Positions 2-64,000 of a stretch of 64,000 bases of DNA are shown here, one piece after another (the stretch's first letter is position 1; each line of letters opens with the position of its first letter). The notes beneath the pieces are model-generated. The model made no database searches. It was not told the origin of the DNA and was given only the letters and a program-made list of their open reading frames with translations. The stretch comes from an uncultured Acidobacteriota bacterium (GTDB lineage: Bacteria > Actinomycetota > Acidimicrobiia > Spongiisociales > ZC4RG35). The DNA lies in contig CAWGJI010000003.1 in assembly GCA_963822895.1 (NCBI GenBank), positions 128,379 to 192,378 of the forward strand, written 5' to 3'. The position numbers were made by a program, and so were the translations under genes.

Positions 2-274
2 GAGGATGAGCTCTACGACGCCCTCCTCCCTCTGGAAGAGCTGCCGGCCGTGGATCACATCCGACGCGGCGTCGGCGCGCTGACCGCCGTCCAGCTCGCC
101 GTGGGCGAGGACGAGACGCTCCCGGCGCGCGCTGCGACGGCATGCCGCGAGGCCGGAGTGCTCACCCGGGCGATGGGAGGCGGAGCATTACAGGTTTCTC
201 CGCCTTTCATCATGACCCCCGACCAGGTCGCCGAGATGGCGTCGCTGTTCCAAGAGGGTCTCTCCAGTCTGTGA
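2..274 (+). CDS. C-terminal fragment of a class-III (omega) aminotransferase (5' truncated by window edge)
   Basis: ORF 50..274 tail LTRAMGGGALQVSPPFIMTPDQVAEMA resembles the C-terminal end of PLP-dependent class III aminotransferases; reading frame is open to the window start. Confidence 0.45.
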   Translation, partial: EDELYDALLPLEELPAVDHIRRGVGALTAVQLAVGEDETLPARAATACREAGVLTRAMGGGALQVSPPFIMTPDQVAEMASLFQEGLSSL

Positions 275-1539
275 AGCAGGTTCCGCTCTGGGTCGACGAA
301 TGTCCGCGCCCCGAGGGATTGACCAGGACCCTGCCGGGCGAGTGTGACTACCTCATCATCGGATCCGGTCTGACCGGCCTGTCCGCGGCGTTGCGTCTTG
401 CCCGCGCCGGAAGGTCCGTGGTGGTGATCGACGCCGGTGAGATCGCATCGGGTGCGTCCTCCATCAACGGGGGGATGGTGTCACCCGACATCAAGGCTGG
501 GATCCGCCACATCTTCGATCGTTATGGGCCCGAGTTGGGCCGCGAGATGTGGCATGCCACGGTCCGATCCGTCGAGATCGTCTCCGACTTGTGTGACAGC
601 GAAGGGATCGATGCCAGGATCGCCAGGGGTGGCATGGCGGCGCTGGGACGGGGAGAGTCCTCCCGTCTCTCTTTCCAGCAGAGTGTCGAGTGGTACGAGA
701 GCAACCTCGGAGTCGACTGGGAGGTCATTGGCGAGGACCGGATCGGGGAGATCGTCGGCGGTGAGTTCTTCACCACTGCGCTGTTCGAGCCCGAGGGCTT
801 TGGCATCCAGCCGGCGAGGTTCGTCTTCGGTCTCGCAACGACGGCATCCGCGGCGGGCGTTGTTCTCGTGGACAACTGCCACGCCATCTCGGCCGAGGCA
901 CGGAGCCCCGGTTTCGATGTCGAGACGGGGCTGGGAACGATTCGGGCCGGCGAGGTGATACAGGCCACCAACGGCTACACCACTGCCGAGCCCACTCCGA
1001 GCCTGGCCAATCGGGTGGTTTCCATCGGGTCTTACATCATCGTCACGGAGCCGCTAGGCAAGCGCGCCGCCTCGGTGTTCCCATCGGGCTCGATGACGTA
1101 CACCAAGAAAAGGCTGCTCAACTACATGCGAAGAACACCCGACGACCGAATTCTCGTCGGTGGTCGTCGGAACTTGCATCCAGGTCTCGACCTCGAGGAG
1201 TCGGCGGCCGACCTGAGACGACAGATGTTGGGATATTTTCCGGATTTGGAGGATTGCGAGATCACCCATGTCTGGGGTGGACGGCTCGGGGTGCCCTTCG
1301 ATCTCGTCCCACACATGGGCCGGATCGACGGGGTTTGGTACGCGATGGGCTACGGCGGCCACGGCGTGGGACTCTCCACCCTGCTCGGGCACGACCTCGC
1401 CGGAATGCTGCTCGGTGAAGACCCGCCCAGCCCGTTCACCAAGGTCCCGCACCCCACCAGGCTCTACTACAACGGCAACCCGTGGTTCCTCGGCCCGGCT
1501 TCGATCCTGTTTCGCACCCTGGATCGGATCGGAAGATAG
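271..1539 (+). CDS. FAD-dependent oxidoreductase (DadA/PuuB-like amine oxidase family)
   Basis: DYLIIGSGLTGLSAALRLA Rossmann FAD motif, PLW...P N-terminal motif as in gamma-glutamylputrescine oxidases, C-terminal GYGGHG; GTG 271 overlaps upstream stop (GTGA); ATG 142 alternative. Confidence 0.75.
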   Translation: MKQVPLWVDECPRPEGLTRTLPGECDYLIIGSGLTGLSAALRLARAGRSVVVIDAGEIASGASSINGGMVSPDIKAGIRHIFDRYGPELGREMWHATVRSVEIVSDLCDSEGIDARIARGGMAALGRGESSRLSFQQSVEWYESNLGVDWEVIGEDRIGEIVGGEFFTTALFEPEGFGIQPARFVFGLATTASAAGVVLVDNCHAISAEARSPGFDVETGLGTIRAGEVIQATNGYTTAEPTPSLANRVVSIGSYIIVTEPLGKRAASVFPSGSMTYTKKRLLNYMRRTPDDRILVGGRRNLHPGLDLEESAADLRRQMLGYFPDLEDCEITHVWGGRLGVPFDLVPHMGRIDGVWYAMGYGGHGVGLSTLLGHDLAGMLLGEDPPSPFTKVPHPTRLYYNGNPWFLGPASILFRTLDRIGR

Positions 1540-10466: not shown

Positions 10467-11711
10467 TCAGACCCGGGTGGGGTTGAGGACCCCTCTGGTT
10501 TCGAGAAGACGTCTCAGCGAAGCCACCACCACAGGGTCGTATTCGTAAGCCGCTCCGGCATGGAGGTTCTCCAGGGCCTGTAGCGGCGACAACCCATCCT
10601 GATGTACCTGCCAGTCGTACGACGCGGCCACTTTGATGATTCGGGAGACCATGGAGATCTCGGGATCGGTCTGTTCGCCGGGTTTGCGATGTGGCTCGTA
10701 TTGCTGGCGTACATGCGTCGCCACGCGATTCAGATATGGCGCTTCGGCGATGATCTCCGAGCTCCACCTGGCGATGTCCTCGTTGCTGTAGCCCATCCGA
10801 ATGATCTGAGGCTCGTTGAGACTCACCCTCCCGATGTCATGCATCAGGCCGGCGTACTCGACGTCCTCGACCTGGACCGGCCCCAGTCCTATCTCCTTGG
10901 CGATGGCGGAGGCGAGCTCGGTTGTCCGGTCGGCATGGCCGTCTATGCCGAGACCGGAGACCTCGGGGATACGGGCCAGGGCCCGTATCGTCTGCTTGTA
11001 GGTGGCCTTGGTCTCCTGGAACCGGCGGAAAGCGCTGTGGGCGAAGGAGTACGGCAGCATTGCGATCGGGACCGCCCACCAGCCGAGCTCGGGCCATAGC
11101 TCGCCAAACAGGGCACCGGTCATGGCCAGCCCGAGAAAGACATTCAGGTCGTGGATCAGGGCCCGGGCCAGATAGGTACGCGAGAGCTCGCGGGTGCCCA
11201 TCACCAGCATCGCCCTGAGGAACACCTCCACCATGATCCAGGCGAGGAGTGCCACGCCAAACGGAAGGAGATCACCCCATTCACCGGACAGTCGGGCAAA
11301 GCCCCCGACGCGCATCGCGGTGTACACGGTGGCGTATGTGACGTACCCGCAGAACCGTCGGACCGTGGTCGGCAGCAGCTCGATGTGACTCTCACCACGT
11401 GAATAGCGGAGCACCCAGACGACGGCCAGCCCGATGCCATAGGTCGAGATCGTGCCGGCGAGGTCGACGGCGGTCCCATCACCGAGGACGAAGGGAAGCG
11501 CCGCCGCCACGGCCAGGCCCGTGGTGAATCGGTTGCCCGAGTTCGACGTGGCGACGCCGAACAAGGAGCCGATCACCAGAGCGGTCGAGGCGACGGCCAG
11601 CTTGAAGGGGTCCGAAGCGGCATGATTACCGGCATAGATGCCGACGGCGACCATGGCGACGCCGGTCACCCAGGAGGCGATGGCGAGAGTCCGGGGATGC
11701 CATCTAGCCAC
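10467..11711 (-). CDS. membrane-anchored HD-domain phosphohydrolase (7TM-HD / HD-GYP-like)
   Basis: N-terminal multi-TM region; GHADRT...AGLMHDIGRV HD motif; overlaps next HD-GYP gene by 8 bp. Confidence 0.65.
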   Translation of the reverse strand: MARWHPRTLAIASWVTGVAMVAVGIYAGNHAASDPFKLAVASTALVIGSLFGVATSNSGNRFTTGLAVAAALPFVLGDGTAVDLAGTISTYGIGLAVVWVLRYSRGESHIELLPTTVRRFCGYVTYATVYTAMRVGGFARLSGEWGDLLPFGVALLAWIMVEVFLRAMLVMGTRELSRTYLARALIHDLNVFLGLAMTGALFGELWPELGWWAVPIAMLPYSFAHSAFRRFQETKATYKQTIRALARIPEVSGLGIDGHADRTTELASAIAKEIGLGPVQVEDVEYAGLMHDIGRVSLNEPQIIRMGYSNEDIARWSSEIIAEAPYLNRVATHVRQQYEPHRKPGEQTDPEISMVSRIIKVAASYDWQVHQDGLSPLQALENLHAGAAYEYDPVVVASLRRLLETRGVLNPTRV

Positions 11712-31721: not shown

Positions 31722-31915
31722 AAACATCCTCCTGTCAAGGAGGATGAAGAGGTTGGAGGCTTCCCTGAGCCCACGTTTCCGTCTTCATCCGAGACTTTCA
31801 TCGTGGCCCTGGACGACCAGGCGACCTGGCTCGTCCCCCCGCCAGGGGGGCTTCACAGTTGCGGGACAGCGTCGGGTTCACACCGACTTCGCTGACTCCA
31901 GGGCACCCACCGACA
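31722..31915 (-). ncRNA. cobalamin (AdoCbl) riboswitch with RBS-sequestering expression platform
   Basis: Minus-strand leader contains GGTGTGAACCCGACGCTGTCCCGCAACTGTGAAGCC. This matches the B12-element consensus GGTGnnAAtCC...CCCGCCACTGTGA. A downstream GAGCCAGGTCGCCTGG resembles the AGCCAGGAGACCTGCC region. CATCCTCC...AGGAGGATG can pair to occlude the RBS. Confidence 0.62.
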
Positions 31916-31921
31916 AGTAGT

Positions 31922-31946
31922 GGGCCCGGCCATGATAGCCGGGCCC
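31922..31946 (-). terminator. perfect 9-bp GC hairpin, probable terminator of the HtrA-like gene (or 5' stem of riboswitch leader)
   Basis: gggcccggc-catgata-gccgggccc, 37 nt downstream of the HtrA-like stop; no U-tract. Confidence 0.35.
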
Positions 31947-57370: not shown

Positions 57371-58027
57371 TCAGGGGCCGATGCTGGCCTGGGCGATGGC
57401 GGCGAGTGCATTCAGCCCGTCCACCGGAATCTCACCGGACACCCGCTGAAGATTCTGGTTGTTCCCGTCGAGTACCACCCAGAATGGGGTTCCTGCCATC
57501 CCGAAGCTCCCGGCCACGGTCCCGGAGGCATCGTCCATGATCACCGGCGCCGTCCATCCCTCACGCTCCAGCCAATCCTGAGGCGGCCAGTTTGGCCGCA
57601 AAGGATCGGTCGAAGTGGCGACCGAGATCAACTCCACGTTGTCAGGGAGGTTGCCGGCGTCCACCCAACTCTGGACGACCGGGACCTCGGCCTGGCAATG
57701 AGGGCACCAGTGGGCGAGGAAGATCACGATCTTTGGGGTTCCGTCAGGCTCGATCGAAACCGGGTTCCCATTCCAATCTGCCCCGATCGCAGTCGGCGCC
57801 GGCAGACCGATGGCCGGGTCGGCCGCTGCAGAGTTGTAGACGGGCAGGGCGTTCCCGGAGACGCTCGGGGTTCCATAACCGACGCTCTCGTCCAGTGGCT
57901 GCTCGCCTGCGATCGATATGGCCAGCGCCACGATCGCGGCCAGGCCGACGACACCGCCGAGGATCCACCAAAGCGTCGAATACGACCGCTTCGCCGGCCC
58001 GACTCCTGACTTTGCTCGTTGTGTCAT
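57371..58027 (-). CDS. membrane-anchored TlpA-like thioredoxin (WCPHC)
   Basis: N-terminal TM, FLAHWCPHCQAEVP CxxC thioredoxin motif; 4-bp overlap with DsbB-like gene. Confidence 0.75.
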   Translation of the reverse strand: MTQRAKSGVGPAKRSYSTLWWILGGVVGLAAIVALAISIAGEQPLDESVGYGTPSVSGNALPVYNSAAADPAIGLPAPTAIGADWNGNPVSIEPDGTPKIVIFLAHWCPHCQAEVPVVQSWVDAGNLPDNVELISVATSTDPLRPNWPPQDWLEREGWTAPVIMDDASGTVAGSFGMAGTPFWVVLDGNNQNLQRVSGEIPVDGLNALAAIAQASIGP

Positions 58028-58551
58028 CTCTCAGTTTTCGTGTAGAGGGCGAGTAGGACGGAGATCACGATAAACCCGGCGCCGGCCATAAACGGTATGG
58101 AGATGAACCCGAACACCTCGACATACCGGGCCGAACAAGGCACCGTCCCACAGGAACCACCGCCCTCGAGAGCAGGTAAAGCCTGGATCAAATAGTGCCA
58201 AATGGATATGGCCAGACCACCGAGGGCAAGGGGGAGGGCGTAGAACTTGACCTGTCTGTCCCTTCGGATCGCCCCGACCAACAGGATGATCGCCATCGGG
58301 TACATGGCGATCCGCTGAAACCAGCAAAGGCGGCAGGGCTCGAACCCGATCACCTCCGAATAGAACAGGGAGCCCGCCGTCGAGACGAGTGCCACGAGCC
58401 ATGCCAGCCAGATCGCCCGATCCCCGAGAAGGTGAGTCGCGTCTCGGCCCCTCACCAGACGGTATACGAGCAACCCGATCGCAGCCACGAGGGCGACGAG
58501 CGAAAGAATGGCAACCAGGGCGTTGTACTGCCGAATGGCCTGTGATGACAT
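58024..58551 (-). CDS. disulfide bond formation protein B (BdbC/DsbB family)
   Basis: 4 TM helices with two Cys pairs (CRLCW and SCGTVPC) characteristic of actinobacterial/Bacillus-type DsbB; start at Met 58551. Confidence 0.7.
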   Translation of the reverse strand: MSSQAIRQYNALVAILSLVALVAAIGLLVYRLVRGRDATHLLGDRAIWLAWLVALVSTAGSLFYSEVIGFEPCRLCWFQRIAMYPMAIILLVGAIRRDRQVKFYALPLALGGLAISIWHYLIQALPALEGGGSCGTVPCSARYVEVFGFISIPFMAGAGFIVISVLLALYTKTER

Positions 58552-58563
58552 CCGCTTCCTCCG

Positions 58564-58609
58564 TAGTCCCGACCGGATTCGAACCGGCGTTTCCGGCTTG
58601 AAAGGCCGG
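58564..58609 (-). other. tRNA-like 3' fragment (anticodon-arm plus T-arm remnant, UUC/Glu-like), possible integration-site scar
   Basis: Minus strand reads ccggc-CTTTCAA-gccgg aaac gccgg-TTCGAAT-ccggt cgggact-a: a canonical T-loop GGTTCGAATCC and a TTC anticodon stem-loop. No matching D-arm or 5' acceptor strand, so not an intact tRNA. Confidence 0.3.
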
Positions 58610-59289
58610 CCCAGGACGAAACGAAGCCTAACGACGATCAACGCCAATAGCCGAGAAATAGCGGTTGACCACGGCATATGCAAAGAGATGAGTTATCGCT
58701 ACTTCGCGGCGGCTTGCGTCGATTTCCACTCCCATGCGGCCCAGGAGCGGCCCAGCGGCCCAGCGGCCCAAGGGCCAGATTCCGTTTGCCGAGCGACGAC
58801 TTTCGCACGTTGGCAATCGTCGTAAAGGTCGCGGATCATTCCTGTTCGAAGCCCGGTGCAGCATTGGCCAAGCTTGTGAGGCCGTTAGTGAACTACTTGG
58901 AGCGCGAAATCTCTCCCTCGGTGGCTCTTGACCACGCAGTGTGGTGAACGTACAGTCCCAACATCGGGCGAGCTGGAGGATGGAGTCCTTGCAATGGTGC
59001 TCAGCTTGCCTCGAAGGCGAAGGTACTGGAGTTTCGTGCGAAGAAGCTCCTGGCATCTCGCCATCGCCTCTCGTGGTAGGAGTTGGCGATGGTGATCACT
59101 CACGCGACGCTCTTCGAAAGCGAAGTCGCTTTTCGAAGTCGGGACGAGATGCTCCACGACATTGCCGTAGCTCACATCTCGTATCGACTAGGTCGACAGG
59201 AGTTTGGCGGTGGCATCCGCGACCACGGCCAATACCAGACATTGACATCCCACGCTCCCAGGACCCCAGCGTGACTTTGGGAAAAGTAC

Positions 59290-60165
59290 ATGCCTGCGTA
59301 TGGCGGACGGATCGATTGTCAATTAGGACCCACCCCTACAACGGCACTGAAGGAGGTACCAGCAGTGGTGGCTGAGACGCTCGCATCGATTGAAGCAACT
59401 AGGAATTCCCTGGTCGTCCAGATGCTCGACGGAGGGAGCGTCTCCCTTGAGATCCCCTGGACGATAGGCCCTGCAACGGTCACGGGGACCATTCGAATGT
59501 CGTCCGGAGAGGAACGAGCTCTTCTCATGAGCTCACCGCCCACGGCCGAAGACTTAGCACGAGACCCAGTCGTCAGTACGGGCATGGAATTCGTCGAGAG
59601 CTATGGATTGAGCGGTGGCCAACTCCGACTTGGGTCGGGCGGCCAGCCTAAGTCGGCCGAACACGAAGTGTCGTATGAGCGGGCAAGCGACGGAACTGTG
59701 AGGGAAAAGCTCGTTCATATGGCTCTATGGGATGGAGACAGCTTCACTCTCCACACCTTCCAGTATGGCGGCGAAGTCGACAGCCTTCGAAGCTTCTACG
59801 AGGCGATGCGAATAGAGGAATCACCAACCGGCGTACGGGTGGCCCCCCGTACCGCCACCAACCTCGCTTTCGTGCAGGGACCGTGGACGATTGTCGACCT
59901 ACCAGGCATCGGAGCGCTTGAAATAGCACAGATGACAGCCTGGCGGCAAAAAGAGGTGCCTACATACGAGGGCACGCCTGTTGTGTCAGGGGAGCTATAT
60001 GTTTCCCGACGTGATGACGGCTCTCACCGCGCGTACTACGTCATCGTCAACGAGACAACATTCGCCACTTTCGTCCCATACCCTGGGTCAGACGAAACTA
60101 GGGTGGCGGCAGTTCTCGAGACCTCTCAGATCTTCTGGAGCCTAGGTGCTAGGGAAGCTGAATGA
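59290..60165 (+). CDS. hypothetical protein (first gene of lower-GC island)
   Basis: 291-aa ORF with A/T-richer codon third positions than the flanking core; no recognised motif. Confidence 0.4.
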   Translation: MPAYGGRIDCQLGPTPTTALKEVPAVVAETLASIEATRNSLVVQMLDGGSVSLEIPWTIGPATVTGTIRMSSGEERALLMSSPPTAEDLARDPVVSTGMEFVESYGLSGGQLRLGSGGQPKSAEHEVSYERASDGTVREKLVHMALWDGDSFTLHTFQYGGEVDSLRSFYEAMRIEESPTGVRVAPRTATNLAFVQGPWTIVDLPGIGALEIAQMTAWRQKEVPTYEGTPVVSGELYVSRRDDGSHRAYYVIVNETTFATFVPYPGSDETRVAAVLETSQIFWSLGAREAE

Positions 60166-60730
60166 TCGGTCACGAGAGATGAGGGGCGGACTTACAAGCG
60201 CCGGAATCGTGTTCGGAGTGTTGGGCGGTGCTGGCGCTATGCACGCTCGCCGGCTCGAGTCACTCGTGTCGACGCTTGGGGCACACCGCCTATTGACTCG
60301 ACCCCTCGTCCGCCCAGTAGCTGGCTTTGTCGCTCTCACGGAGATTTCGCTCGGGATCTTGGGCCTGGCCGGGCTTGCCTTTGTTGGCGGCCAACTACTT
60401 GCCGTAGCCGCTCTTCTTTCAGCTGCCCTGTACGCGTCCTATACCGTCTATCTCATAGTCCTCGTCAGGATCCGGCCAGGCTCGAACTGTGGTTGCAATC
60501 AGAGCGACCTGCCAGCGAACTGGGCTCATGTCTTGCGCTCAGCAGTCTTGTGCGTTCTGGCCGTGGCGGCGGCACGCTCGATCATTCCAATCTCGAACAC
60601 TGGCTTGGAGACTTCAGAGCTGATTCTCACGTTATGTGTAATAGCAGGCGGAGTGGCTTTGGTGTGGATTAGTCCGGAAGTCGTGGGGTTGAGGAAGACT
60701 ATAAGACAAAGACAAGGAGTACTGCGGTGA
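60146..60730 (+). CDS. MauE/DoxX-family redox-associated membrane protein
   Basis: ~4 TM helices and conserved loop motif RPGSNCGCNQSD, similar to the DIDCGCFG-type CGC motif of MauE family proteins; overlaps the next gene by 4 bp. Confidence 0.55.
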   Translation: MLGKLNDRSREMRGGLTSAGIVFGVLGGAGAMHARRLESLVSTLGAHRLLTRPLVRPVAGFVALTEISLGILGLAGLAFVGGQLLAVAALLSAALYASYTVYLIVLVRIRPGSNCGCNQSDLPANWAHVLRSAVLCVLAVAAARSIIPISNTGLETSELILTLCVIAGGVALVWISPEVVGLRKTIRQRQGVLR

Positions 60731-61224
60731 GCGCTTTGACCGCTGCTGTTGTCCTGGCATGGGTGGCCATTCTTATCCTGGCTTTGGCGATTAGTGGACT
60801 GACGCGGGCGGTGGGTCGCCTGGCTACAGGAGCTGTAGGGGCGCCCGCAGCTCATCCTCTGATTGGTAGCCAGGCACCACCAATCCCGGCCCTTGGGCCC
60901 TGGTCTGAACCGACGGTGATGGTGTTCGTGGATCCCACATGCATCGTATGCCGCGAAAGAATCCAAGACATCAAGGAGATTCACTCAGGTGAGACGAATT
61001 GGATCCTTGTGACCACGGATCCCAGCGAAACCTTCTCAGACTTGGAGTTGAACGGCCTGCGACTCATCCGGGTCGAAAGCCCTTACGTCACCTTTTTTGG
61101 CGCTTACTCGAAGCCATTCGGGGTTGTGATTGACAGCAATGGACTCATTGTCGCGGCCTCGGCCTTAGGAAACAGGAAGATGCTCACCGACCTTGTGCCA
61201 ATGGGTTCTAGAGAAGGTAGCTGA
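60727..61224 (+). CDS. membrane-anchored thioredoxin-like thiol-disulfide oxidoreductase (MauD-like)
   Basis: N-terminal TM anchor, MVFVDPTCIVCRE CxxC active site in a thioredoxin-fold context, ~165 aa. Confidence 0.6.
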   Translation: MSALTAAVVLAWVAILILALAISGLTRAVGRLATGAVGAPAAHPLIGSQAPPIPALGPWSEPTVMVFVDPTCIVCRERIQDIKEIHSGETNWILVTTDPSETFSDLELNGLRLIRVESPYVTFFGAYSKPFGVVIDSNGLIVAASALGNRKMLTDLVPMGSREGS

Positions 61225-61229
61225 ACAGG

Positions 61230-61799
61230 ATGCTTGATCTCGCAACGGTTGTTGACTGGGACGATAAGCCGCACGGCGCCAATCGGCGGAGCCTACACGT
61301 CCACCACCCGCATGAGCCGATGCGGCCCACTCGTCGGATGTTCCTCAAGGGGGCCATGGCCGCTTCCGCCGGGTTCGCCCTTGCTGCGATGGGGGCTTTT
61401 CCCTTCGTCCAACGCGCACGGGCAGACGCCCCGCCCGGTGGCTGGTTGATCTGGACCAATGGAGGAACGAACGACTGCGGCGGTCTGGACTCGTGGGTCA
61501 ATGATGACGAGTGCGATGGCTGCAACAACAAGCTGTGGTGTTGCTGCTCGAGCGGGTACCACAAGGGCCCCGCTTTCGGTTGCAACTACGACTTCCGCCC
61601 CGATCTCTGCAAGTCCGGCGGCTACGACGGGTGGACCTGGAAGATGACCGTTTGCTGCCTGACCGGCGCAACCACCTGTCATAAGAATCGTGTCTGGCGA
61701 TGCTCGGATGGCAAGTACCGGTCGAGTTGTTCGAGCGGATGGACGGATTCGATCTGTCGGTACATTACGTCATCCGGCACCACCTGTTCCGGGTGCTAG
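61230..61799 (+). CDS. TAT-signal secreted Cys/Trp-rich small protein (16 Cys, 8 Trp in ~125-aa mature part), MauA-position gene
   Basis: Twin-arginine motif TRRMFLKGAMAASAGFALAAMGA with AxA cleavage (ARA/DAP); mature region has WCCC, VCC and many spaced Cys/Trp; sits directly after the MauE/MauD-like pair. Confidence 0.6.
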   Translation: MLDLATVVDWDDKPHGANRRSLHVHHPHEPMRPTRRMFLKGAMAASAGFALAAMGAFPFVQRARADAPPGGWLIWTNGGTNDCGGLDSWVNDDECDGCNNKLWCCCSSGYHKGPAFGCNYDFRPDLCKSGGYDGWTWKMTVCCLTGATTCHKNRVWRCSDGKYRSSCSSGWTDSICRYITSSGTTCSGC

Positions 61800-61972
61800 G
61801 GGCGAGGGCGGCCCTCGAGGGAAGGTGGGCTGCAATCTGGGTCGCGATTGGGGCCATCCTTGCTCTATCGCTTCTGTTAGTCGTCCGTGGATGGGGCTCC
61901 ACCCTTGTCGCCCCTCTAGTGCTTTTCACGGCAGGTGCGGGCGCCGGGGTGTCCCTGTCAGGTTCGACCTGA
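61793..61972 (+). CDS. possible small two-TM membrane protein
   Basis: GTG start just before the stop of the Cys-rich gene; hydrophobic IWVAIGAILALSLLLVV and LVAPLVLFTAGAGAGV; the longer ATG 61700 version would overlap the previous gene by 100 nt. Confidence 0.25.
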   Translation: MLGARAALEGRWAAIWVAIGAILALSLLLVVRGWGSTLVAPLVLFTAGAGAGVSLSGST

Positions 61973-62041
61973 ACTTACAACAGCGCTGTAGCGCTAATCC
62001 CGGCCGGGAGCCGTGGGTCGAGACCGAGGCGTAACGCAGCG

Positions 62042-62554
62042 TTGTATCTCGTCGGGTCGGTCGTTGGGGCTGTGATCATACAAATCGCTTTGCAGGGCGT
62101 GAGCATGCTCAGTGTTTGGGTTTCAAGGGACCTGAGGGCCGGAGCCTTTCTGGCGATCGGAGTGTCCGCACTGCTGGTGGATACCGGTGTCGCTCCGTGG
62201 CCCATTCCGAGCCCAAGACGGCAGGTACCTCCCCATATTTTCAGCGCCGGGCATCGACGGGCCGGCTTCCTCTTCGGACTGCAGATGGGTGCAGGTATGG
62301 TGACCTACATCACGGCCGCAGCTCCGTACACCATTTGGGTGGCCACAGGATTGGGGCTGACTTCTTTAACGAATTCGTTGGCTCTTGGCATTGGGTTTGG
62401 TTTTGGTCGTGGGCTGCTTCCGTTTGCACGCCTCGGATTGCATCGCGATGACGGTTGGATGGAGGCTCTCGAGGTTTTTGCGGCCCGAGCCCGATGGGCC
62501 GGGTCTAGCTTCGCACTCGTGGGCACAACGGTTGCTGTCTTATTGATCGGTTAG
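62042..62554 (+). CDS. hypothetical integral membrane protein
   Basis: 170 aa, ~5 hydrophobic helices, no Cys, no recognised motif. Confidence 0.45.
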   Translation: MYLVGSVVGAVIIQIALQGVSMLSVWVSRDLRAGAFLAIGVSALLVDTGVAPWPIPSPRRQVPPHIFSAGHRRAGFLFGLQMGAGMVTYITAAAPYTIWVATGLGLTSLTNSLALGIGFGFGRGLLPFARLGLHRDDGWMEALEVFAARARWAGSSFALVGTTVAVLLIG

Positions 62555-63595
62555 CGCGGCGACATCTTGATTGGCAACAGCAATGCTCCGAGCCACCGCC
62601 GAGGCGGAGCCATAGGTCGTGTCATGTATGGACACATCGACGCGTCTTGCAGATTCGTCAATACACTTGACCACGTATGTTCCACCAGCAGACTCGCTTT
62701 CTGCAGCCATATCTTGGCAGCCGGCCGGGAAAAGCGTGAGGGTGAAGCCGGGATGCGAGACCTCGATGCTCATCGGCGGGAACTCGCTCGGAAAGGCAAG
62801 GCGTAACGGGGAAGCGACGTCGATCGTTGGCCATCCCGACGGGTCTTCTGAGACATTGACACTTTCGAGCCAAGAAGTCACCTGGTCCCGGGAGAAGGTC
62901 TGCGGTGTGTAAAGCCACATGAGCCAGCCGTCGGTCTCAAAGACCAAGTAGCTGCCAGCCGGCGAAGTTCTCTTAACATAGATCCAAGCTGTCTTAATGC
63001 CGTCTGACACCGTATCCATGAGCTCCGACTCATCAAACCACGTGGTCGGTTCCCCTTGTACGAACACGAAGTCGCTCCCAAGAGACGCCCGATCTGGAGG
63101 AGCGACGATCCAACCCTGCAGCTTCGCGGTGCTGTCTTCAATCGGCAACTCCATCGGAAGACTCCAGGTGATTACTTCATCATCCAGATAGCGAACGGTC
63201 AGTAGATTCGAACCAGTACCCTGTGATGTGGCGAACTCCAACGTTGGTGGTTGCTCCCGGGGCCATAGTGAGCCCTGAGAACTCACCCCAGAATCTAAGG
63301 ATATCTCGTTTGAAATACCATCGTCTAATGGGCCTCGATTGGTCAAAAGTGCGGGCAGGGCTCCGAGCACCAATACGAGTACGGCTGAAGCAACTGCCAC
63401 CGTCCACCCAGCAGTGGGCCTCCATCGTGGAGCTGCGGGAGCCGGACTCCTAAGTGATGAATCGTCCAGATCGAGATGGAGACCTATTTGCTCAGACACA
63501 CGGGTGAAGGTTGCAGCGCCTTCTGCGCCATATCTCCATCGATTCGCCTCTTTTGTGGATACAGGGTTTTGGTTCCGTAAGTCACGCAATGTCAT
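62540..63595 (-). CDS. putative anti-sigma factor (cytoplasmic N-term, single TM, extracytoplasmic domain)
   Basis: Lies 26 nt downstream of the ECF sigma gene on the same strand; N-terminal ~70 aa then TM helix WTVAVASAVLVLVLGALPALL then a ~270-aa extracellular domain. Start at ATG 63595 (the longer ORF to 63730 would overlap the sigma gene). Confidence 0.5.
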   Translation of the reverse strand: MTLRDLRNQNPVSTKEANRWRYGAEGAATFTRVSEQIGLHLDLDDSSLRSPAPAAPRWRPTAGWTVAVASAVLVLVLGALPALLTNRGPLDDGISNEISLDSGVSSQGSLWPREQPPTLEFATSQGTGSNLLTVRYLDDEVITWSLPMELPIEDSTAKLQGWIVAPPDRASLGSDFVFVQGEPTTWFDESELMDTVSDGIKTAWIYVKRTSPAGSYLVFETDGWLMWLYTPQTFSRDQVTSWLESVNVSEDPSGWPTIDVASPLRLAFPSEFPPMSIEVSHPGFTLTLFPAGCQDMAAESESAGGTYVVKCIDESARRVDVSIHDTTYGSASAVARSIAVANQDVAALTDQ

Positions 63596-63620
63596 TCCTC
63601 GCTCCCTATCTCCTGCTTCT

Positions 63621-64000
63621 TCAGGATCTCCTCGAATCGCCTTTAGCCCTTGATAAACGCATACGGGCGGCGGAAGGCGTGGTGCCGAGCACGTCGGCCA
63701 CTTCACGACGGGTAAGGCCCTCCCATCCAACCAGAAGGAGGATCTCGCGCTCCTCCGAATCCATTACTGCTAGAGCGTCTCTAAATTCGAGTGATAGCTC
63801 ATTCTCCGACGAAGCAACGGCGCTTGGGGTCTCGGCACCGATGCGCTCCAGCAGCCTTCGCCAGCGATCGTCGTTCCGGTAGCTTTGTCGCACGACATTG
63901 CCGGCGACCCCGTACAGCCATGGCAACGCTTTGTCTGGGACGTCGTCGCGACGCCTCCAGGCAACCAAGAAGGTGTCCGCTACGACATCTTCGACACAAC
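63621..64000 (-). CDS. ECF-subfamily RNA polymerase sigma-70 factor (5' end beyond window)
   Basis: Region 2.4-like PWLYGVAGNVVRQ and region 4 HTH LLVGWEGLTRREVADVLGTTPSAARMRLSRA; N-terminal region 2 lies past position 64000. Confidence 0.75.
   Translation of the reverse strand, partial: CVEDVVADTFLVAWRRRDDVPDKALPWLYGVAGNVVRQSYRNDDRWRRLLERIGAETPSAVASSENELSLEFRDALAVMDSEEREILLLVGWEGLTRREVADVLGTTPSAARMRLSRAKGDSRRS

Follow-up and report, generated by a model that had tools for sequence, protein, structure and literature searches.

What do maturation proteins of the methylamine dehydrogenase (Mau) type serve in a region where the dehydrogenase itself is missing? The question is raised by the last few kilobases of a 64,000-nucleotide (nt) stretch of contig CAWGJI010000003.1 (GenBank assembly GCA_963822895.1), here called the window, with positions counted from its first letter. 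Genes for a MauE-family membrane protein, a MauD-like thioredoxin-fold protein and a small cysteine-rich protein with a twin-arginine translocation (Tat) signal, here called the client, follow one another directly (Table 1). A sequence-only reading of the window had described them as an orphan triad and offered two interpretations, a small protein with a quinone cofactor or other crosslinks, and a disulfide-knotted secreted protein with its own folding relay. The observation itself was confirmed and the interpretation proved half right. The three genes stood, and their isolation did not, since a preceding gene (orfX), a MauF-like gene with an in-frame UGA and a pair of genes for an extracytoplasmic function (ECF) sigma factor and a putative anti-sigma factor had been overlooked. 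In the reading that we favor, with a probability of roughly 0.7, the genes form a self-contained Mau-type maturation cassette of soil Actinomycetota, which would make, export and oxidatively fold a small secreted protein of a new family.

The genes form a compact run on the plus strand (59290 to 62554), with ends that overlap or nearly touch. Relatives were obtained in a first round, which included an uncultured Actinomycetes bacterium metagenome-assembled genome (MAG) near-identical to the window, a Catenuloplanes MAG and Thermomonospora cellulosilytica, and by a metagenome scan with the downstream membrane protein as the query, which gave 254 relatives, with 80 loci chosen for study. The recurring order was orfX, MauE, MauD-like, client, a small open reading frame (ORF) and a membrane protein ORF of about 175 amino acids (aa), often followed by the ECF sigma and anti-sigma genes. 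Because this order was kept in every related locus with enough flanking sequence, the three-gene arrangement is not due to chance. Twenty-eight metagenome loci contained the client together with 2.3 kb or more of upstream sequence; in these, orfX was present in 28/28, MauD in 27/28 and MauE in 23/28. The triad belongs to a conserved actinobacterial cassette, called six-gene, which usually comes with the ECF sigma/anti-sigma pair.

The assignment of the first protein of the triad to the MauE family was borne out. The ORF scored 53.1 bits on Pfam PF07291 (cut-off 27) over residues 18 to 142 and matched Paracoccus MauE in hhalign with Prob 96.3% and E 1.6e-9. The CGC motif, in the context PGSNCGCNQSD, lies in the loop before the last transmembrane (TM) helix, and residues C115-G116-C117, H33, E66, and R131 were invariant across six cassette MauEs. 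According to a preprint (10.64898/2026.03.05.709764), the CXC motif of MauE is usually followed by Phe-Gly, which is N-Q here. The same preprint reports that MauE from two other phyla replaces DsbB in Escherichia coli, that the CXC motif is needed for this DsbB-like activity, and that MauA is present in only about 10% of MauE-bearing species. By analogy, the cassette MauE is a putative quinone-linked thiol oxidase of the DsbB type.

The membrane-anchored CxxC protein was found as described, with the CIVC motif in DPTCIVCRE and the cis-Pro motif KPFGV (family consensus TPFG). The alignment of eight cassette homologues (A7) matched Paracoccus MauD in hhalign with Prob 98.7% and E 2.1e-16 over 159 columns, spanning the full length with the TM anchor included, and C72, C75, and the cis-Pro P130 were invariant. 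The protein appears to be a true but distant homologue of MauD and not a MauD equivalog.

All features ascribed to the client by the sequence-only reading were present, too. The twin-arginine motif, h-region and AxA cleavage site of a Tat substrate are contained in PTRRMFLKG...RARA/DAPP, and cleavage is predicted to follow ARA (residue 65). The mature protein of about 124 aa contains 16 Cys and 8 Trp, some of them in LWCCCSSGY and TVCC. Relatives were rare, with 5 found by a word-indexed search of 5.8 billion proteins and 43 matches, nearly all of 170 to 207 aa, by a full HMMER scan of 1.84 billion cluster representatives with a mature-domain profile. In the family alignment of 38 sequences (mean column identity 28%), R35/R36 were nearly invariant and a core of ten Cys was shared; W135, W137, D160, and G161 were invariant, D133 was conserved and H111 nearly invariant. 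The family motifs were GY-HK, LRPNxC, YDGWxW, WRC(H/S)DG, and SICR. Homologues of the client always adjoined a thioredoxin gene. TAT_signal was the sole consistent Pfam match (18/38 members), and the window client scored below threshold on TIGR01409 (13.1 versus 16.7). A segment M.L.L.D[IV].P with a basic stretch was conserved before the RR motif in nearly all 38 clients (61230 to 61320, residues 1 to 30), so the client gene starts at 61230 and not at an inner ATG. Tat signals do not usually have such a segment, which might serve orfX or another escort as a docking site.

The number of Cys in the mature part was even in 38/38 clients (10, 12, 14, 16, or 18), an outcome with a probability of about 2^-38 were parity free. 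The leaders were without Cys across the family except for one stray residue, and variable Cys columns tended to appear and vanish together, e.g., C118 with C167. Because the counts are strictly even, all Cys of the client are likely to be paired into 5 to 9 disulfides, as in the second interpretation of the sequence-only reading, a disulfide-knotted secreted protein with a folding relay. Even parity does not fit metal sites or a Cys-Trp crosslink and does not speak against a Trp-Trp cofactor. PDB sequence searches with the client returned only Tat signals and a marginal, compositionally biased match to a MYND finger. The client is a new protein family with no recognizable fold.

Its function is the subject of the alternative that survives best, which is compatible with the maturation mechanism favored here. 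The client would be a secreted antimicrobial or competition factor, bacteriocin-like or like a ribosomally made peptide that is modified post-translationally (RiPP), with orfX and/or the membrane protein conferring immunity and the ECF pair controlling production. Such a role would suit a small, secreted, very Cys-rich and fast-evolving protein of patchy taxonomic distribution, encoded in a stretch of lower GC content (0.58 to 0.59 versus 0.64) beside a tRNA-like remnant, and the candidates for RiPP clusters flagged by decRiPPter in Streptomyces include mauE/mauD clusters whose precursors have at least 8 Cys (PMC7794033). The cassette, however, is without a dedicated exporter, a leader protease or a known immunity family, the client had no match in PADLOC or to known toxins, and the membrane protein downstream of the client, a MauF homologue with a predicted redox-type selenocysteine (Sec), is unlike an immunity protein. 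We regard an antimicrobial client as rather improbable.

In hhalign, the match between the family of membrane ORFs of about 175 aa and MauF covered the last 160 residues of MauF (Prob 96.1%, E 3.4e-9); an invariant motif in the N-terminal part of MauF at first seemed to have no counterpart in the cassette protein. In the window, two short ORFs in the same frame, 61793 to 61972 and 62042 to 62554, make up the MauF-like gene, and position 61972, where the triad had been taken to end, is the last base of the in-frame TGA, which stands between GAGAGVSLSGST and TYNSAVALIPAGSRGSRPRR in the translated sequence. With the stop replaced by Cys, the read-through family (A12) matched MauF from a plasmid of Paracoccus denitrificans PD1222 and three further MauF sequences (A8) with Prob 97.0% and E 1.1e-10 over 173 columns in hhalign, and the TGA fell exactly on the invariant Cys79 of MauF (motif LSTWSPCGYSS). 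Cys-form homologues were the proteobacterial MauF proteins and P0071, a 294-aa metagenomic protein with GTWLPCGFS at this site. The GTG start of the MauF-like gene overlaps the stop codon of the client (GTGCTAG), which supports a probable translational coupling of the two genes.

In every locus, the two ORFs shared one reading frame and were separated by a single stop codon. The codon was TGA in 9/9 distinct first-round loci and, in a first motif search, in 73/80 metagenome loci, the remaining loci being partial or slightly variant; in the loci missed by this search, an in-frame stop was present wherever the site sequence exists. A stricter search found TGA in 78/78 informative loci, representing 70 distinct sequence contexts, and never TAA, TAG, or a Cys codon. 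The true terminators in these loci were only 62 to 75% TGA, with TGA 46, TAG 20, and TAA 8 at the end of the MauF-like gene and TGA 46, TAG 8, and TAA 7 at the end of the client. About 24 codons from the stop to the first possible restart were conserved as protein ([TS]xNSAxxLxSPGWR), with N63 and S64 invariant. The predicted Sec is preceded by a Gly/Ser-rich stretch and followed by an Arg-rich loop.

Two hairpins directly 3' of the UGA were seen in per-sequence folds. The first (H1, alignment columns 12 to 17 and 22 to 27) is typically CAGCGC-nnnn-GCGCUG and the second (H2, columns 29 to 35 and 41 to 47) typically CCUCGCC-AGGUU-GGCGGGG. The apical loop of H2 is G-rich, CGGGA in the window and mostly AGGUU or GGUCN (e.g., GGUCG) in the relatives; two loci had a GGUC-loop hairpin earlier, at 17 to 34. 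Across 71 distinct sequences, 88% of the cells were paired in comparison to 31 to 57% in slid controls, and seven hairpin pairs showed compensatory double changes. Of 500 shuffles, 2 attained the observed value on one of the five measures and none did so on the other four, to which the covariation score belongs. RNAalifold independently recovered H2 with covariation. The hairpin pair is described here as resembling a selenocysteine insertion sequence (SECIS). Next to the cassette, selA, often with selB, was found in L002 to L004, L015/16, L041, L043, and L090/99. Locus L002 is the closest relative with flanks, with a client 76% identical to that of the window and selA/selB adjoining.

The UGA, the alignment, the hairpins, the selA/selB genes and the Cys-form homologues together are the standard signature of a bacterial selenoprotein gene, and insertion of Sec at the UGA is likely. 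Because the codon was TGA in 78/78 loci and aligned with the MauF Cys, the hairpins covary and selA/selB adjoin the cassette in several relatives, the MauF-like gene most likely represents a new selenoprotein family that gene callers split into two ORFs. Public annotations contain an ORF of about 55 aa and one of about 150 to 190 aa, and RefSeq hypothetical proteins of Thermomonospora and Actinomadura (149 to 196 aa) are confined to the C-terminal fragment. Pfam and NCBIfam have no model for MauF, and no model of these collections matched MauF or the read-through proteins; the NCBIfam selenoprotein models did not match the read-through protein either. A full-text literature search for MauF and selenocysteine gave nothing relevant, and Table 1 of PMC13188914, which lists 119 prokaryotic selenoprotein families (May 2026), has no MauF-like entry and no SGSxU[TS]xNS motif. 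In mycobacteria, formate dehydrogenase was reported as the only selenoprotein (PMC13449736).

Alternatively, the TGA at 61970 would be an ordinary stop, which separates a two-TM peptide of about 59 aa from a membrane protein of about 170 aa, with no selenoprotein involved. Every public gene call splits the gene in this way, UGA is the commonest stop in Actinobacteria (PMC13449736), an in-frame TTG is available at 62042 and tRNA-Sec or sel genes were not found in the window. An ordinary stop would leave the single in-frame stop of every locus, its strict identity as TGA where 25 to 38% of the real stops are TAG or TAA, and the conservation of about 24 codons before any restart to coincidence, as well as the continuous alignment of the read-through with MauF, the position of the stop on an invariant Cys, the conserved covarying hairpin pair behind it and the selA/selB genes adjoining in several relatives. 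It is considered quite unlikely.

The window protein and true MauF did not match the DsbD_2 family (PF13386). A relative, P0067, which matches A12 with E 7e-14, scored 29.9 against a gathering threshold of 24.9 on PF13386 over profile positions 29 to 168, and because P0067 passes this threshold, MauF and the MauF-like proteins probably form a divergent branch of the CcdA/DsbD_2 superfamily, by a link that is only transitive via P0067. P0067 and P0068 are a sister subfamily of MauF-like fragments that start with MLGSINPLGERGR and carry PGPRRQVN; their N-termini resemble the sequence after the Sec codon of the cassette proteins, and they may be shortened calls downstream of an in-frame UGA. In L001 (10752 to 11343), the MauF-like read-through runs for about 130 codons and then falls out of frame with the gene called at 11065 to 11343, which suggests a frameshift from an assembly error or a pseudogene.

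A further alternative is a quinone cofactor in the client. The client would then be a new small quinoprotein or crosslinked redox protein in which one or two of the invariant Trp are converted to a cofactor like tryptophan tryptophylquinone (TTQ) or cysteine tryptophylquinone (CTQ), with MauE, MauD, and MauF maturing it as in mau. The order MauE-MauD-client is that of mau/aau clusters, to which a MauF homologue is now added, the client shares a TAT-type leader and dense disulfides with MauA, its W135 and W137 are invariant and H111, D133, and D160 conserved, and a Trp-Trp cofactor would be consistent with even numbers of Cys. The client itself failed every MauA membership test run. None of the 38 members matched PF02975 at E up to 1; hhalign aligned only the signal peptide with MauA, the PDB sequence search gave no MauA match, and the predicted client fold is unlike the MauA light-chain fold. 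The client is unrelated to the light chain of methylamine dehydrogenase. A MauA-specific leader in the client ("LRLDDV" versus "FRFDDM" in MauA) was rejected; against the client-leader profile, seven MauA/AauA leaders scored 13 to 27 in hhalign versus 19 to 30 for ten unrelated TAT signals, and the likeness of the leaders is therefore generic.

The partners of a quinoprotein were missing as well. The sequence-only reading had reported no MauB or MauG in the window, and tblastn with Paracoccus MauB, MauG, MauJ, MauA, amicyanin, and MauM matched nothing in 652 kb of sequence from the window and 96 related loci. In the loci with gene calls, no heme, radical S-adenosylmethionine (radical-SAM) or flavin enzyme and no large-subunit candidate was conserved beside the cassette, and no radical-SAM or flavin adenine dinucleotide enzyme was among the gene calls next to it, although no systematic search for these was made. 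OrfX has no conserved catalytic-type residues, and a CTQ (Cys-Trp) would give an odd Cys count, which was never seen. The quinone interpretation thus gained no positive support and is very unlikely.

A metalloprotein loaded with Zn, Cu, or Fe-S in the cytoplasm, with Cys as ligands, would explain the Tat signal, which is typical of cofactor-bearing proteins, the nearly invariant H111 and the CxGC...CC...H of residues 95 to 111 with its marginal MYND zinc finger match (E 0.0095, high compositional bias), and is hardly credible, since Cys counts rising from 10 to 18 in steps of two are a prediction of disulfides and not of metal sites, a cofactor with thiolate ligands would gain nothing from, or be harmed by, MauE/MauD as its own oxidase pair outside the cytoplasm, and the client has no ferredoxin or high-potential iron-sulfur protein motif and no Pfam metal-binding family. 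The MYND zinc finger as an identity of the client, given its strong Cys bias, was dropped on Cys parity.

The maturation cassette that we favor would work as follows. The client with its long twin-arginine leader would be exported by Tat and cut after AxA, and its 10 to 18 Cys would all be paired outside the membrane, as the even counts suggest. The anchored MauD-like protein would donate the disulfides and be re-oxidized by the CGC loop of MauE, from which electrons would pass to the quinone pool; homology supports both roles, and the activity is known for other MauEs (10.64898/2026.03.05.709764). Tat export and the oxidation relay from MauE to MauD are likely from the motifs and alignments. 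The MauF homologue, in which Sec is predicted in place of the invariant Cys from the UGA, the alignment and the RNA structure, may be a reducing or isomerizing arm that corrects wrong disulfides in a client with very many possible isomers, because MauF-like proteins probably are a divergent branch of the DsbD_2/CcdA thiol-disulfide electron carriers. With low to moderate confidence, reducing equivalents would cross the membrane through the MauF-like protein, which may be a dimer, and would keep MauD able to isomerize wrong disulfides.

The product of orfX has no signal peptide and no TM segment. It had no match in Pfam, NCBIfam, PADLOC, or PDB, and a homologue search returned cassette members only, with no relatives detected outside the cassette. 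In its alignment (A4), the only invariant residues were Gly, Pro, and Val, because of which orfX might be, speculatively, a cytoplasmic chaperone or escort of the precursor rather than an enzyme. Its identity with MauJ was ruled out by hhalign (Prob 0.1%).

Several observations weigh against the favored reading and its parts. MauE is truly absent from L002 (6680 to 8107) and L090/L099 (3516 to 4701), where the gap from orfX to MauD is 88 nt and about 107 nt, respectively, and where MauD, the client and MauF-Sec are retained and selA/selB also adjoin; this argues that MauE is dispensable in these cassettes. The sequence-only reading had named homologues of the Cys-rich protein without MauE or thioredoxin neighbors as evidence against it, and they exist for MauE and not for MauD. 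A housekeeping DsbB is encoded next door in the window. With DsbB and a TlpA-like CxxC protein beside the cassette, the organism therefore has a second disulfide system, which may explain the loss of MauE in some cassettes. On the NCBIfam model for MauD (TIGR02661), the thioredoxin-fold protein scored 30.9 bits versus the equivalog cut-off of 188.6, so that its identification with MauD holds as homology and not as equivalence. Tat normally exports folded proteins, so that a chain in need of 8 disulfides is no simple substrate; Tat does let small hydrophilic chains through unfolded, and MauA is the same precedent. The AlphaFold2 model of the client, from the alignment of 38 sequences, was of moderate quality.

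The remaining points concern the MauF-like protein and selenium. Only one redox position (Sec60) is conserved in A12, unlike in the two-Cys proteins CcdA and DsbD, and the positive-inside rule places Sec, as predicted from sequence, at the cytoplasmic end of TM2; given both, the isomerase arm is put forward as a hypothesis. The Rfam SECIS families did not match the hairpins at E up to 10. A distance of 36 to 40 nt separates the UGA from the G-rich loop of H2 downstream of it, which is among the longest spacings known for bacterial SECIS elements. Within the 64-kb window and the readable flanks, no sel genes were found, and tRNA-Sec was not found in the window, in the flanks, or near selA in the relatives.

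The bolder form of the favored reading is a selenium-dependent folding machine with MauE as the oxidase, MauD as the carrier and the membrane Sec of the MauF-like protein as the nucleophile that reshuffles or reduces wrong disulfides; the three would jointly fold a new class of Tat-exported proteins, with as many as nine disulfides in about 125 residues. We hold it as tentative and rather doubtful. If true, it would give the first biochemical role for MauF, unexplained in methylamine dehydrogenase biogenesis since the 1990s, and a new selenoprotein family in Actinomycetota. To a more radical and weaker variant, a client with a new Trp-derived cofactor, we attach hardly any credence. The predicted exchange of Sec for Cys marks the single conserved Cys of MauF as a functional residue and, with the probable DsbD_2 link, makes the function of MauF directly testable. 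The apparent selenoprotein family is systematically misannotated as two ORFs, including in cultured Thermomonospora and Actinomadura. The MauF/MauE/MauD trio, thought to be specific to methylamine dehydrogenase, appears here as a portable module for an unrelated disulfide-dense Tat client, which fits and extends the 2026 proposal of MauE as a general DsbB-like enzyme. The client would merit structure determination and may play a part in envelope biology or in competition among microbes.

In comparison to the mau/aau clusters, the cassette shares homologues of MauE, MauD, and MauF, the adjacent order MauE-MauD-client, and a client of about 125 to 130 aa with a long TAT-type leader and many disulfides. 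In contrast to mauFBEDACJGMN of Paracoccus denitrificans, its client shows no relation to MauA by sequence or by predicted fold, and MauB, MauG, MauJ, amicyanin, and MauM/N are missing. MauF heads the mau operon, whereas the MauF-like gene lies downstream of the client and has a UGA, predicted to encode Sec, for the invariant Cys. The cassette adds orfX and the ECF sigma/anti-sigma pair, and its hosts are Actinomycetota, not Pseudomonadota. B-E-D-A clusters occur in Novosphingobium and Pseudomonas. In Novosphingobium aromaticivorans pNL2 (L103, 1708 to 4516), a cluster of the aromatic amine dehydrogenase type consists of the large subunit, MauE, MauD, and the light chain, and neither MauF nor MauG is encoded within 4 kb; even true quinoprotein clusters thus keep the order MauE-MauD-client as their conserved core.

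With the systems DsbB-DsbA and DsbD/CcdA-DsbC/ResA, the cassette shares a putative quinone-linked membrane oxidase (the CXC loop of MauE), a thioredoxin-fold carrier and a probable DsbD_2-superfamily protein. It differs in being operon-encoded for a single client, with the housekeeping DsbB/TlpA-like pair separate, in a DsbD_2-like part with one redox residue, the predicted Sec, and in having no DsbC-type isomerase. In the lasso-peptide cluster of sviceucin, SviE and SviF are a MauE/DoxX-type protein and a thiol-disulfide oxidoreductase beside a Cys-rich peptide. The decRiPPter families (PMC7794033) likewise place actinobacterial MauE/DoxX, sometimes with MauD, beside a product with at least 8 Cys, whose disulfides they are proposed to form. 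Compared by description, the cassette differs from both in its client, which is a folded domain of about 125 aa with predicted Tat export and not a short leader-cleaved peptide, in the absence of RiPP tailoring enzymes, and in the presence of MauF-Sec and orfX. Actinobacterial MauE/MauD beside small Cys-rich products were thus already noted by decRiPPter (PMC7794033), and the defined cassette with a Tat-exported client of 5 to 9 disulfides, its MauF homologue and Sec for the MauF Cys appear to be new. Among the catalogued selenoproteins (PMC13188914), the TsoB rhodanese/DsbD fusion-like protein, YeeE/YedE, and the SO_0444 transporter are also membrane proteins with Sec in the place of a Cys that is redox-active or a ligand, and likewise have a UGA directly followed by a hairpin, and Cys-form homologues; in contrast to these, the MauF-like family is actinobacterial.

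Table 1. Cassette genes, RNA elements and other features in the 64,000-nt window
Feature	Position	Strand	Basis or remark
orfX, first gene of the cassette	59290..60165	+	longest ORF 291 aa; 266 aa in public gene calls, which begin near 59365
MauE-family membrane protein, CGC motif	60146..60730	+	PF07291 match
MauD-like thioredoxin-fold protein, N-terminal membrane anchor, CIVC	60727..61224	+	hhalign to Paracoccus MauD
Cys-rich TAT-signal client, precursor 189 aa	61230..61799	+	TAT motif, Cys content
MauF-like polytopic membrane protein, predicted selenoprotein of 253 aa via in-frame UGA	61793..62554	+	MauF homology
In-frame TGA, predicted Sec codon	61970..61972	+	motif GVSLSGST-U-TYNS
SECIS-like element, two hairpins	61981..62018	+	H1 61982-61995; H2 61997-62018
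Putative anti-sigma factor, single TM and extracytoplasmic domain, no assigned fold	62540..63598	-	position beside ECF sigma gene
ECF-type sigma factor gene, cut at window end 64000	63621..64000	-	tblastn
DsbB (housekeeping type) and TlpA/redoxin-like CxxC protein	57371-58683 (DsbB 58024-58683)	-	NCBIfam PRK03113, 145 bits, for DsbB
tRNA-like element	58564-58623	-	Rfam tRNA 35.5 bits, E 4.5e-6
Cobalamin riboswitch, unrelated to the cassette	31799-31939	-	Rfam RF00174 35.7 bits versus gathering 31.5

Downstream of the cassette, the MauF-like gene and the anti-sigma-like gene converge, and their 3' ends share about 15 nt (62540 to 62554). The ECF sigma sequence (63992 to 63639) aligned in tblastn with residues 29 to 149 of the sigma factor of L013, and an ECF sigma gene was found beside the cassette in L001, L002, L007, L011, L013, L015/16, and about 11 metagenome loci. 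The anti-sigma-like gene immediately downstream of it on the minus strand encodes a protein with no Pfam match that shares 33% identity with its positional counterpart in L002 to L004. The sensor domain of the anti-sigma factor differs among loci, with Kelch/pyrroloquinoline quinone propeller or glyoxalase domains elsewhere. Regions upstream of orfX, compared by eye, show a sigma-70-like TTGACA...TAnnnT and no shared GGAAC...CGT motif. The adjacent ECF sigma factor might control the cassette, whose upstream regions look sigma-70-like. The linkage to the ECF sigma/anti-sigma pair suggests a role of the client at the cell envelope.

From about 58 kb onward, the GC content of the window falls to 0.58 to 0.59, compared with about 0.64 before. 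A tRNA-like element lies just upstream of the DsbB gene, exactly at this step from about 0.64 to about 0.58. Its anticodon and T arms are intact, the D arm is almost gone and ARAGORN makes no call. The element could be a remnant attachment site and the cassette region acquired DNA. In L043, an array of clustered regularly interspaced short palindromic repeats (CRISPR; 72 to 1065, minus strand) with 14 repeats and a weak match to Rfam CRISPR-DR20 is located upstream of selA and the cassette.

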